Source: Octopus sinensis (Eukaryota). Taken from it: a stretch of 8,185 nucleotides of DNA. Made by a program: the position numbers and the translations under genes. The stretch spans positions 1 to 8,185 of the forward strand of contig NW_021828564.1 of the NCBI RefSeq assembly GCF_006345805.1. Direction: 5' to 3'. This document shows, in pieces, positions 2,171 to 7,397 of the stretch. Every line of letters starts with the position of its first letter. Positions within the stretch are counted from its first letter, which is position 1. Under the pieces are notes generated by a model. That model saw only the letters and a list, made by a program, of their open reading frames with translations. It had not been told where the DNA came from and did no database searches.

Positions 2171-2340
2171 AACTAAGCAATAAGGGTTTAGCAACGAGTT
2201 GCCTTACCACTCGATAACCGAATTTAGACACATATCCCGACCTTGTCATCAAGGGTTATAGCTCTTTCTTCGAACGTAAAGAGGTGTGAGCAGTAAGGCG
2301 TGATATTCGACACCTTGCCAATCTAATCATCACCTTTTTT

Positions 2341-2460
2341 AGTTATCCCGGTCACGTGTGAAATCAAGTTTTTATCGTTACAGTCATAAGAATTAAATAT
2401 TAAATCTTAAATAATTCTATCTTGACCGAAACTTCTTTCTGGTCTTCAGCGTATAATACT
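2341..2460 (-). ncRNA. Degenerate hammerhead ribozyme copy (array unit 1)
   Basis: Minus strand: AGUAUUAUACG-CUGAAGA (core 2449-2443 intact), long stem II, then the GAAA/stem III/GUC segment is corrupted (ACACGUGAC), then CGGGAUAACU. Confidence 0.6.
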
Positions 2461-2954
2461 ATAATCAAAATATTATATATTGAATTTTGAGATACCAGAA
2501 GGTCACCAACTCAACTCAGTTATCAGAGCGAGCTAAGAATCCGCAACTGGTATCACCACGAATTCAATTTGTGAATGAAACGTTGTGTCAACAGCCCCAC
2601 TTCCACACCTCGGTACCAAACCCAGATGCTGTGGTCATCTACTGAATAAATATATGTTATCCGTAATAATGAAGTGGTGAACATTAATTAATTTGGAACA
2701 CAATCACTTCACACACAGTACCACCAAAGTCGTCTTCGGCATGTAAAAGCCTCTTCGGGAAAATTTAAGTAATACTAACAATAAGGGTTTAGCACGCGGT
2801 TGCCTTACCACATACCGAATTTAGAATAGCAGTCAACGGTTATAGCTATTTCTTCTACTAAAAATAGGGAGATCTCAGTAAAAACAGAATTTGGAAGGCA
2901 AGACACAACAGGTAAGAGAGAATGAATTGACTGCAATCTATCATACATTTTTTT

Positions 2955-3067
2955 AGTTATCCACGGACGTCGTTTCGAAATCAAGTTTTAGGAAAGCATA
3001 AGAATTAAATATTACATAATAATAATTCTATCTTACCGAATTTCTGTTCTCTTCAGCGTAGAATACT
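2955..3067 (-). ncRNA. Type I hammerhead ribozyme with extended stem II (array unit 2, complete)
   Basis: Minus strand: stem I 5' arm AGUAUUCUACG (3067-3057); CUGAAGA (3056-3050); 73-nt imperfect hairpin closed by GAA/UUC (3049-2977); GAAA (2976-2973); CGACG-UC with GUC triplet; stem I 3' arm CGUGGAUAACU (2965-2955). 9 of 11 stem I positions pair. Predicted cleavage is between 2966 and 2965. Confidence 0.82.
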
Positions 3068-3540
3068 ATCATCATAAATGATTATAATTGAATTTTGAAG
3101 ATACCAGAGGCACAACCAACTCAGTATCAGAGCGAGCTAGAATCCGCAACTGGTATCACCGATTCAATTTGTGAATGAAACTATTGTGTCCACAGCCCCT
3201 TCCCACCCGTGTAGCAAAACAAGATGCTGTGGTCATCTACTGAGATAAAATATTGTTTATCCGTAATAATGATGGTGAAATTAATTAATTTTGAAAATTA
3301 TCAATTACACCAGTAGTCTTCGCATGTAAAAGCCCGCATTCGAGGAAAATTTAAGTATACAAGCAATAGAGGGTTTAAGCAACGAGTTGCCTTACCACAT
3401 ACCGAATTTATAAATAGCAGTCAAAGGGTTATAGCTATTTCTTCTACTGAAAAAGGGAGATCTCAGTAAAAACAGCATTGGAAGGCATACACAAACAGGT
3501 AAAGAGAATGAATTGACTGCAATCTATCATACATTTTTTT

Positions 3541-3600
3541 AGTTATCCACGGACGTACGTTTTCGAAATCAAGTTTTTAGAAACTAATAATTAAATATAA
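3541..3600 (-). ncRNA. 3' half of hammerhead ribozyme (array unit 3, truncated inside stem II)
   Basis: Minus strand: ...CUUGAUUUC-GAAA-ACGUACGU-C-CGUGGAUAACU, with palindromic stem III ACGUACGU and a GUC triplet. The CUGAAGA half is replaced by a (TA)n tract at ~3598-3618. Confidence 0.7.
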
Positions 3601-3977
3601 ATATTATATATATATATATTTTATGTTCCCAAATTTGTACCCACATGCATCTCTTTCACACTTTCTACGTATAAATATAAGTATATATGTGTATATACTC
3701 ACTTACGCACTCAAAGACACATGCACAGACCCAAATACGTATATATTTACATAGATACGTGTATCCCTGTATAGAATTGTTTTAAATCAAAGCTTTCTCA
3801 AGAACTGAAGTTTTCAGTATATTCTATTAAATGTGACATGCATTATAATGCTAGTATTTTTTTTTAGAGAATGTATTTATTGAATTTATCAGAATGATTA
3901 AGAATATGGTGCATTGTATTGCATAGAACGTGAATGGGGTATGTTATCTATGAATTATGCAAGTAGTATGTGAAATC

Positions 3978-4476: not shown

Positions 4477-5020
4477 GGCAACTAGCTACCAGAAACGTTA
4501 ACACGCCGGGCGAAATGCTAAGCAGTATTTCGTCTGCCGCTACGTTCTGAGTTCAAATTCTGCCGAGGTCGACTTTGCCTTTCATCCTTTCGGGGTCGAT
4601 TAAATAAGTACCAATTGCGCACTAGGGTCGATATAATCGACTTAATCCGTTTGTCTGTACCCTCTGTGTGTAGCCCCTTGTGGGCAGTAAAGAAGTAGGT
4701 ATTTCGTCTGTTTTTCCGTTCTGAGTTCAAATTCCGCCGAGGTTGACTTTGCCTTTCATCCTTTCGGGGTTGATAAATTAAGTACCAGTTACGCACTGGG
4801 GTCGATATAATCAACTTAATCCGTTTGTCTGTCTTTGTTTGTCCTCTCTGTGTTTAGCCACTTGTGGGTCGTAAAGAATTAGGTATTTCGGCTGCCGCTA
4901 CGTTCTGAGTTCAAATTCCGCCGAGGTCGACTTTGCTTTTTATCTTTTCAAAGTACCAGTTACGCACTAGGGTTAATTTAATCGACTATCCCCCTCTCCC
5001 AAAAATCTCAGGCCTTATTA
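4477..5020 (+). mobile_element. tRNA-derived SINE family A, tandem trimer (one head, three bodies)
   Basis: Head 4477-4524. Body units start gtatttcg at 4525, 4699 and 4883 (periods 174 and 184). Each has B-box gagttcaaattc and core gtcgactttgcctttcatcctttcggggtcgat..aagtacca, which resembles the MetaSINE-type central domain from memory. Units 1-2 end in tail A; unit 3 has an internal deletion and tail B. Confidence 0.93.
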
Positions 5021-5119: not shown

Positions 5120-5519
5120 ACTCTTTACTCTCTTTTACTCTTTTACTTGTTTCAGTAATTTGACTGTGGTCATGTTGGAGCACCGCCTTTAGTCGGGCAC
5201 ATCGACCCCAAGACTTATTCTTTGTAAGCCTAGTACTTCGTCCATCGGTCTCTTTTGCCGAAACGCTAAGTTACGGGGACGTAAACACACCAGCATCGAT
5301 TTTCAAACGATGTTGGGGAGACCAACACAGATATACAACATATACACTCACACACATATATACGACAGGCTTCTTTCAATTTCCGTCTACCAAATCCACA
5401 CAAGGCTTTGGTCGGCCCGAGGCTATAGTAGAAGGCACTTGCCCAAGGTGCTACACAGTGGGACTGAACCCGGAACCATGTGGTTGGTAAGCAAGCTACT
5501 TACCACACAGCCACTCCTG
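5117..5519 (-). mobile_element. Near full-length tRNA-derived CORE-type SINE (family B, octopus OR-like)
   Basis: Minus strand head caggagtggctgtgtggtaagtagcttgcttaccaaccacatggttccgggttcagtcccac (A and B boxes); CORE-like accttgggcaagtg; internal TG/TA-rich stretch; 3' tail of (GAGTAAA[A])n repeats at 5117-5147. The OR name is from recall. Confidence 0.88.
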
Positions 5520-5633
5520 ATTTGTACTAAAGAGTTAAATCATGACCAAAATTTCACAATTTCGTTTCCCAGCACAAGACTCTCACTCGACGAATTCAAT
5601 TATCGGATACAGACAATTATAAATGATTAGAAA

Positions 5634-5804: not shown

Positions 5805-6038
5805 ACCTATTTCTTCACTACCCACAAGGGGCTAAACACAGAAGGGACAAACAAGGACAGACAAACGGATTAAGTCGATTACATCGACCCCAGTGCGTAA
5901 CTGGTACTTATTTAATCGACCCCGAAAGGATGAAAGGCAAAGTCGACCTCGGCGGAATTTGAACTCAGAACGTAACGGCAGACGAAATACCGCTAAGTGT
6001 TTCGCCCGGAGGCCTAACGTTTCTGCCAGCTCGCCACC
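5805..6038 (-). mobile_element. Full-length monomer of SINE family A with 19-bp target-site duplication
   Basis: Reverse complement of the 4477-4700 unit. Flanked by identical tatgatgattgccaaccta at 5791-5809 and 6040-6058. Confidence 0.96.
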
Positions 6039-7101: not shown

Positions 7102-7131
7102 GTATATAAACATATATATATATATATATAT

Positions 7132-7360
7132 GGGAAAAAAGTCAAGATAAAAGATGCTAAAATAGTTTTATAAAAAACTTTTCAGTACCGGTTTCAGTCA
7201 TTGAGACTTTTTCAATTGAAACGATTAAATAATTAAATTTAGAAAAATTAAAAGAAAAGTTTTTTTTTAAAGAATATTTGTATAGTGTTCAGAAATAAGT
7301 GACATTTTCCTTGTTTCTGCCTGTCTGTCTCTCTTGTTTACTCTTGTGGGTTCGAGGTCC
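7132..7360 (-). mobile_element. Probable Penelope-like element (pLTR) fragment embedded in (TA)n
   Basis: A 229-bp segment bounded by (TA)n at 7112-7131 and 7361-7397 that contains a minimal type I hammerhead. Such motifs are an established feature of Penelope-like element pLTRs. Confidence 0.62.
7180..7221 (-). ncRNA. Minimal type I hammerhead ribozyme, U3-A8 core variant
   Basis: Minus strand: UUUCAA (7221-7216), UUGAAAA (7215-7209), AGUC-UCAAU-GACU (stem II), GAAA (7195-7192), CCGG, UA, CUGAAA (7185-7180). Stem III is the palindrome ACCGGU, with a GUA triplet. Stem I has 5 bp plus an A/C mismatch next to the core. Confidence 0.75.

Positions 7361-7397
<37 letters not shown>
7361..7397. 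repeat. (TA)n microsatellite
   Basis: Near-pure TA run; similar runs at 7112-7131 and 7730-7748. Confidence 0.95.

Follow-up and report, generated by a model that had tools for sequence, protein, structure and literature searches.

A Dispersed 599-nt Retrozyme-Like Family in Octopus sinensis Whose Insertions Carry a Penelope-Like Footprint

A Tandem Array With Hammerhead Motifs

The stretch of DNA considered here, referred to as the window, comprises 8,185 nucleotides of contig NW_021828564.1 from Octopus sinensis. On the minus strand, positions 2171-3600 hold about 2.4 head-to-tail units, which we interpret as a one-armed insertion of a family with a 599-nt unit, consisting of a terminal segment of ~195 nt, two units and a further ~55-70 nt. 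Anchor sequences recur at spacings of 584-601, and none of the 27 open reading frames of at least 70 amino acids in the window overlaps the array. The motif readout likewise agrees with the preliminary description of this DNA, according to which about 2.4 non-coding copies carry a minus-strand hammerhead that is complete in copy 2 and partial in copies 1 and 3. Family coordinates are given below as M1-M599, counted from the predicted cut of the ribozyme.

In copy 2, the type I hammerhead motif is complete (2954-3066) and reads, on the minus strand, UCUACG-CUGAAGA (CUGAAGA at 3056-3050), a stem II of 73 nt, GAAACGACGUC (GAAAC-GAC-GUC, 2976-2966) and CGUGGA, with UCUACG and CGUGGA pairing to form a stem I of 6 bp. 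From this motif, the cut is predicted to fall between 2966 and 2965. Copy 1 (2340-2460) has CUGAAGA at 2449-2443 and a 3' core that is broken as assembled, with neither GAAA nor GUC, whereas copy 3 is 5'-truncated ahead of CUGAAGA and retains the 3' half of the motif (3540-3600), with GAAAACGUACGUC at 3564-3552 and a predicted cut between 3552 and 3551. The cut-to-cut monomer (2966-3551) is 586 nt long as assembled and 94% identical to a clean copy of the family. The proposed monomer of ~587 nt is thus right for the window and too short for the family, in which it measures 599 nt.

According to the array mapping, the variable, truncated 5' end of the insertion lies near 3600, next to an AT-rich or (TA)n tract at 3596-3622. 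The fixed 3' end (2171-2200, M193-195), which may mark the first priming site, is located just downstream of a hairpin closed by GG...CC and abuts the (TA)n target tract at 2010-2171. A conserved structured domain, M100-300, encompasses both fixed end sites discussed below and corresponds to 2658-2880 on the minus strand, with the second site, ~M300, at about 2658; by the same domain comparison, its counterpart in the next copy is at about 3258-3470.

A hammerhead descriptor matched once in the array and in none of 1,000 dinucleotide shuffles. Rfam returned 57 matches in the window at E<=5, none of them a hammerhead and none above the gathering score, and Tandem Repeats Finder missed the 599-nt unit because of its period limit of 500. 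A scan for bacterial promoters, which is irrelevant to the array, gave hits at chance level. Neither a second copy of the window locus nor an empty site was found.

Identity between the window copies and the family amounts to 89-94%. Compared with one natural copy, the two units contain 14-16 substitutions plus 25 and 50 indel bases, whereas 97 other full units have medians of 4 substitutions and 4 indel bases against the same copy, and an indel maximum of 26. Furthermore, the two window copies have no private change in common and contain no markers of the older subfamilies. Given the excess of indels and these two absences, errors in the consensus of this small contig are the likely cause of the broken motif in copy 1 and of the 6-11% divergence of the window copies in general.

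A Dispersed Family and Its Relatives

Searching the 2.72-Gb genome of the species returned 222 matches from the 39 candidates that were scored out of 1,676, and an exact 28-mer spanning the hammerhead cut site was matched 1,151 times genome-wide and never in the control. The family monomer, measured from cut to cut, is 599 nt long with a GC content of 0.35, a clean example being L007:2514-3112, and the family is estimated to occupy ~350 loci. These exact matches and the absence of ORFs from the units sustain the earlier proposal of a dispersed, non-coding tandem family. As far as was checked, nothing that the preliminary description had listed as speaking against its reading, such as a unit confined to a single locus or a consensus without the core motifs and stem I, was found.

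When the hammerhead pattern was relaxed, the number of matches rose to 5,423 in the genome (control 1). They include sister families with units of ~540-570 nt as well as older 600-nt subfamilies, and the inserts in stem II range from 25 to 78 nt. The ~540-570-nt sister families have the hammerhead fold in common with the 599-nt unit. On contig C1, loci L121-L150, L166 and L169 contain such sister families, with units of ~541-568 nt and short stem II inserts, and among the first 100 hammerhead matches listed they outnumber the 599-nt family. They end at the same two sites, located at ~199 and ~291 in their own units.

Solo hammerhead motifs were also observed, at L063:3334 (-), L103:7521 (+), L109:5667 (+), L146, L153, L155, L157, L163 and L164. 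These have a palindromic loop 3 and a long stem II in a sequence unrelated to the 599-nt unit, and most of them end 140-300 nt upstream of (TA)n. At L230:1-1060, a separate tandem repeat of ~365 bp with an inverted arm contains a hammerhead-like motif of the U3-A8 type and probably represents another retrozyme class.

Conservation of the Hammerhead and of an Internal Domain

Each unit of the family contains a type I hammerhead motif, which in the family copies reads UCUACG CUGAAGA, followed by stem II (GAAA, a 3x3 internal loop, a long hairpin and UUUC), GAAAC GUAC GUC, the cut, and CGUGGA. Stem II is ~75 nt long, with the conserved internal loop after 4 bp. Thus, CUGANGA, GAAA, GUC and stem I are conserved and stem II is long, as expected from the initial reading. 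Stem III consists of 2 bp and is palindromic, and the self-complementary ACGUACGU is predicted to form a duplex of -11.2 kcal/mol; a self-complementary stem III is also described for hammerheads that cut as dimers (PMC4209133; PMC7229834). On a clean family copy, the sole Rfam match was Hammerhead_1 (RF00163), which aligned over model positions 1-45 of 45 with E 0.16. The two checks put forward at the outset diverged, the descriptor finding the motif and Hammerhead_1 remaining below threshold, with 17.8 bits against a gathering threshold of 34.

Both sides had changed in 6 of 28 hammerhead pairs across 11 subfamily copies (one of the 28 was never paired), a level of covariation reached in none of 500 shuffles. 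The domain M100-300, which is common to the sister families, showed changes on both sides in 9 of 38 pairs (0/500 shuffles); for both comparisons, the structure was drawn from one aligned sequence and the aligned sequences are related. In the gappy alignment of the 3' domain, RNAalifold kept only 6 pairs. Folding of the monomer gave a z-score of -6.47 on the ribozyme strand (0/100 shuffles) and -3.45 on the opposite strand, and 64% of the bases were paired when it was folded as a circle. The hammerhead region folded alone was as stable as its shuffles (z -0.2).

The Insertion Footprint of a Penelope-Like Enzyme

Insertions were mapped in 40 stretches (the first listed exact-match loci on contigs C1-C2 plus 8 top matches), in L167 and in the window, as well as in 20 further stretches picked as long arrays, from which one duplicate assembly was dropped. 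Among the one-armed insertions, 26 of 28 end at M189-201, the other two ending at M300-305 beside larger arrays. Among the insertions composed of two head-to-head arms, 30 of 34 combine an end at M186-201 with an end at M290-310, the exceptions being L031, L035, L064 and L260. The 5' ends are scattered over M5-M590, and head-to-head arms join via short overlaps of 1-10 nt. Both fixed end sites are situated just 3' of a GG...CC-closed hairpin and are fused to (TA)n.

The array insertions carry a Penelope-like footprint: two fixed internal 3' ends, an inverted 5'-truncated arm and microsatellite targets. The purified enzyme of Poseidon, a Penelope-like element (PLE) from Anolis, cuts AT-rich DNA and extends both strands, and in vitro it initiates at two internal positions, both downstream of the hammerhead, which gives rise to the "tail" (PMC11167929). 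PLEs are furthermore described as having an inverted arm and a tail on one end (10.1101/2021.04.23.441226). The fixed internal 3' ends and the head-to-head arms match these start sites, tail and inverted arm, which indicates a Penelope-like enzyme. The two fixed 3' ends and the head-to-head arms are the strongest evidence in our analysis and were absent from the preliminary description; its view that the non-integer arrays bear signs of reverse transcription from RNA accords with these footprints.

Intact ORFs with a reverse transcriptase and a GIY-YIG endonuclease, of 775 and 781 aa, are present in the genome, in elements that we take to be of the Neptune type; their ends have minimal hammerheads of their own and are fused to (TA)n. 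An alternative is that the 599-nt unit serves an as yet unseen autonomous PLE as its terminal repeat (pLTR), with the arrays as truncated products of that element. The insertion footprint would be identical, and in Xenopus, 24 of 57 retrozyme families are reported to match known elements, with PLEs in 21 of 22 (10.64898/2026.07.22.740005). The GIY-YIG search scored 150 of 5,029 candidates, which leaves some room for such an element; among the 50 PLE loci fetched from these 150, no terminal repeat shows homology to the unit. Against the pLTR reading, no mapped array runs into an ORF, no ORF with both domains was found between array repeats, and the PLE ORFs near arrays (L049, L086, L093, L169 and L174) stand apart from them, with (TA)n in between at L086, L093 and L169. 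Moreover, a life cycle of its own is indicated by arrays of 10-24 ORF-free units and by the existence of more than one sister family. We consider it very improbable that the unit is a pLTR, and favor a non-coding element that borrows its enzyme.

Individual candidates for an autonomous partner were rejected. At L169, where a PLE ORF lies between arrays of a sister family, as well as at L086 and L093, a base-by-base reading revealed the intervening (TA)n tracts. The family at L157 is another, older retrozyme family, with a PLE ORF in 0 of 30 loci. At L117:7971-8768, a frame of 266 aa matches a PLE endonuclease region weakly and is unlike the other families; it possibly belongs to a Naiad-type element.

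Cutting and Expression

Arms that start at the cut provide a genomic trace of the ribozyme. For the ~558-nt sister families, 9 of 11 matches are arms starting exactly at the cut, the other two being a deletion and an unrelated sequence, whereas at control sites in the same families arm starts account for one of two matches and none of one. The excess corresponds to p 0.02 when only the first control is used and to p 0.0009 when the two are combined, if the controls are assumed to cover 85% as many copies. In the 599-nt family, three arms at two loci start exactly at the cut among 21 matches, the rest comprising 12 one-base losses, four GUU variants and two nearby junctions. The arms starting at the cut, and their small number in the 599-nt family, suggest that the hammerhead likely cuts in vivo and that read-through is the rule. 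Imprecise ligation at the cut was also considered, since one C is missing in 12 of the 21 matches, and was rejected because the rate is not clearly above background.

Two findings in related systems weigh against the proposed route. In vitro, the Poseidon enzyme uses mainly uncut RNA as its substrate and can dispense with its own hammerhead (PMC11167929), and 8 of 9 dimers of Xenopus retrozymes are reported not to cleave in vitro (10.64898/2026.07.22.740005).

The unit or part of it is present in 20 of 24 listed sequencing runs, from 12 studies, none of which is on record as RNA. In three runs presumed to be RNA, 30 of 30 bins along the unit are covered, with contigs that cross the cut and wrap around the unit, a pattern in which a circle, a tandem transcript and DNA carry-over look the same.

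Circle, Multimer or Both

Changes that occur in at least 75% of the units of an array and are private within the sample were found in 13 of 42 multi-unit arrays, in both arms in eight of them; the remaining 29 arrays have no private change and are uninformative on the template. At L246/L247, A132G, A153G, A161G and A201G are present in 15-17 of 15-17 units. A second assembly of this locus repeats the four A>G changes as well as unit-specific changes, and thus polishing did not simply homogenize the array. The term "private" refers to the sample only, as two such changes at L044 recur at L266. The array-wide private changes are best explained by one monomer that was read many times.

As a separate observation on the assembly, the unplaced contig G000:C10246 (L255, L268 and L269) is a redundant assembly of the array at C6:55.42 Mb together with the sequence on either side, and contains the end of the array in two copies.

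The same element and enzyme might instead use a linear template as a rule, in the form of an uncut multimer or of cut monomers joined by template jumps, with circles being rare or a by-product. Several loci point in this direction: at L167 and L264, a change is confined to the outermost unit of both arms, and at L265 a change occurs in one unit. Such patterns are not obtainable from a monomer circle, and a mixed template fits these three loci, with conversion between inverted arms as another explanation for L167 and L264. The use of linear cut RNA is also apparent from arms that start at the cut, and the substrate preference of Poseidon in vitro agrees with it (PMC11167929). However, the junctions between units are seamless, with loss of a C at the cut in 3 of 140 cases, compared with 19 of 2,158 at 22 other CC/GG pairs. 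One array has the same four private changes throughout its ~17 units, which requires that a single monomer was reread, and copying of multimers alone should only shorten arrays. A mainly linear template is for these reasons rather unlikely in our judgment, and repeated reading of a monomer, probably often a circle, is the explanation that we prefer.

Nine minority changes are common to two or three units, in six arrays. They would fit a minisatellite that is amplified and spread at the DNA level, in which the hammerhead is a relic. Unequal crossover can yield tandem homogeneity, and local amplification has been proposed for retrozymes (10.64898/2026.07.22.740005). Yet a minisatellite provides no reason to expect two fixed 3' ends combined with random 5' ends, (TA)n targets and head-to-head arms, nor arms that start at the cut, covariation, strand-biased folding and the A>G bias described below. 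This explanation is strongly disfavored and highly improbable, and we continue with copying through RNA.

An A>G Bias and Possible RNA Editing

The array-wide private changes are biased, with 9 of 20 being A>G on the ribozyme strand compared with 2 T>C (p 0.011). Counted per array, the ratio is 6 to 2 (p 0.07). Among the changes in single units, which are mostly errors, 7 of 131 are A>G (Fisher p 1e-5 against the array-wide changes). A132G was found at four additional loci, with differing backgrounds. In the three presumed-RNA runs, the numbers of A>G and T>C places are 22:8, 12:2 and 17:17, compared with 5:2 in a DNA run; these runs are from other individuals and the counts include polymorphism in the family. 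A neighbor preference typical of ADAR is not clear, as a 5' U or A is found at 7 of 9 A>G sites and at 112 of 169 A's in the unit.

ADAR editing is heavy in cephalopods and is the likeliest source of the A>G bias, with selection for helix-strengthening changes and polymerase error as possible alternatives. We tentatively suggest, as an idea that may well prove wrong, that circular ribozyme RNAs were A-to-I edited and then copied repeatedly by the Penelope-like enzyme, so that the edits entered every unit of a new array in the germ line. If the signal does reflect RNA editing, it would represent a route from edited RNA to heritable DNA. Among the papers listed in a literature search, none reports editing in retrozymes.

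A Proposed Life Cycle and Its Relation to Known Systems

Taking the findings together, we think it likely that this is a young, dispersed, non-coding non-LTR retrozyme of 599 nt, the RNA of which is copied into (TA)n, probably often from a circle, by a Penelope-like and probably Neptune-type enzyme with reverse transcriptase and endonuclease activities. Read-through transcription would give rise to multimers, in which neighboring hammerheads may pair via the palindrome ACGUACGU and cut after GUC. Stem I would then hold the ends of the 599-nt monomer together, such that ligation yields a circle. The borrowed enzyme may bind the M100-300 domain, cut (TA)n DNA, prime within the RNA at ~M195 and go round the circle up to ~15 times, across the ligated cut, until it stops at random. 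Often, a second cDNA would be primed on this RNA by the other DNA end, at ~M300, and would be joined to the first in head-to-head orientation through 1-10 nt. A minority of the insertions may derive from linear RNA, either cut monomers or multimers.

As predicted from its sequence, the 599-nt family works like an animal non-LTR retrozyme in the features that were compared, with a predicted ribozyme and a putative circle. Animal retrozymes are likewise described as non-coding tandem repeats with one type I hammerhead per unit, a self-paired monomer and a GC content under 45%, compared with 35% here, and PLEs have been proposed as their mobilizers; those of amphibians have the same short palindromic stem III and cut as dimers (PMC7229834). 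The 599-nt family differs in the length of its unit, as those retrozymes measure ~170-400 nt, and in its stem II of ~75 nt, where a conserved internal loop follows the first 4 bp (PMC7229834 for the comparison).

The preliminary description took the repeats for a larger-unit family. Size does not make the family novel, and nor does its class, since units of 51-972 bp, a range that includes 599 nt, and an origin from PLEs are already reported for animal retrozymes in a 2026 preprint (10.64898/2026.07.22.740005). In that survey of vertebrates, Neptune-type PLEs co-occur with the retrozymes, and the 35 species include no mollusc as described. The link to PLEs is there based on pLTR homology and co-occurrence, whereas for the 599-nt family it is based on the insertion footprint, with no pLTR homology found in the 50 PLE loci fetched.

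Features in common with the PLEs are a pair of internal start sites located downstream of the hammerhead, a tail restricted to one end and an inverted 5'-truncated arm (PMC11167929; 10.1101/2021.04.23.441226), as well as AT-rich or microsatellite targets and a palindromic loop 3 (PMC11167929; PMC4209133), and circular templates had been hypothesized in 2014. Unlike the PLEs as described, the family has no ORF, its tail measures ~100 nt compared with 30-40 nt in those elements, and an arm contains up to ~15 units. Furthermore, genomic 5' ends are located at the cut in the retrozyme arrays, whereas the Anolis study found no RNA reads that end there (PMC11167929).

As far as we searched the literature, the features that appear to be new are the lineage, the long stem II with its conserved internal loop and the ~100-nt tail, together with genomic footprints that tie a retrozyme to priming of the PLE type, to cutting in vivo and to copying of a single template. 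No report on a hammerhead or a retrozyme in octopus or other cephalopods was found, and Repbase or Dfam may hold the family; in an octopus repeat annotation, the word "ribozyme" has no occurrence in the main text (PMC13282606). The more than 5,000 hammerhead motifs represent a large radiation in this lineage. Mobility of animal retrozymes has so far been a hypothesis, in which circular RNA is copied by some autonomous, perhaps Penelope-like enzyme, and cleavage by their hammerheads in vivo has likewise had the status of a hypothesis. The two priming sites, the arms that start at the cut and the single-template arrays of this family specify exact RNA sites and products, by which the copying route becomes testable.

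Other Features of the Window

A fragment of a 3' terminal repeat at 7126-7369 (-) shares 87% identity with the corresponding repeat of the Penelope-like element at L169. Positions 7215-7186 contain a hammerhead-like motif with a core of the U3-A8 type, UUGAAAA...GAAACCGGUA. At 754-942, a near-perfect inverted repeat of 85 nt with a 19-nt spacer possibly represents a MITE or a fold-back insertion; short matches to the sequence on its right (960-1010) were found at 32 other places. Finally, 457-625, 4481-4987, 5121-5520 and 5805-6033 are copies of abundant repeats that we take to be SINE-like, including a 174-bp tandem of 2.4 copies.
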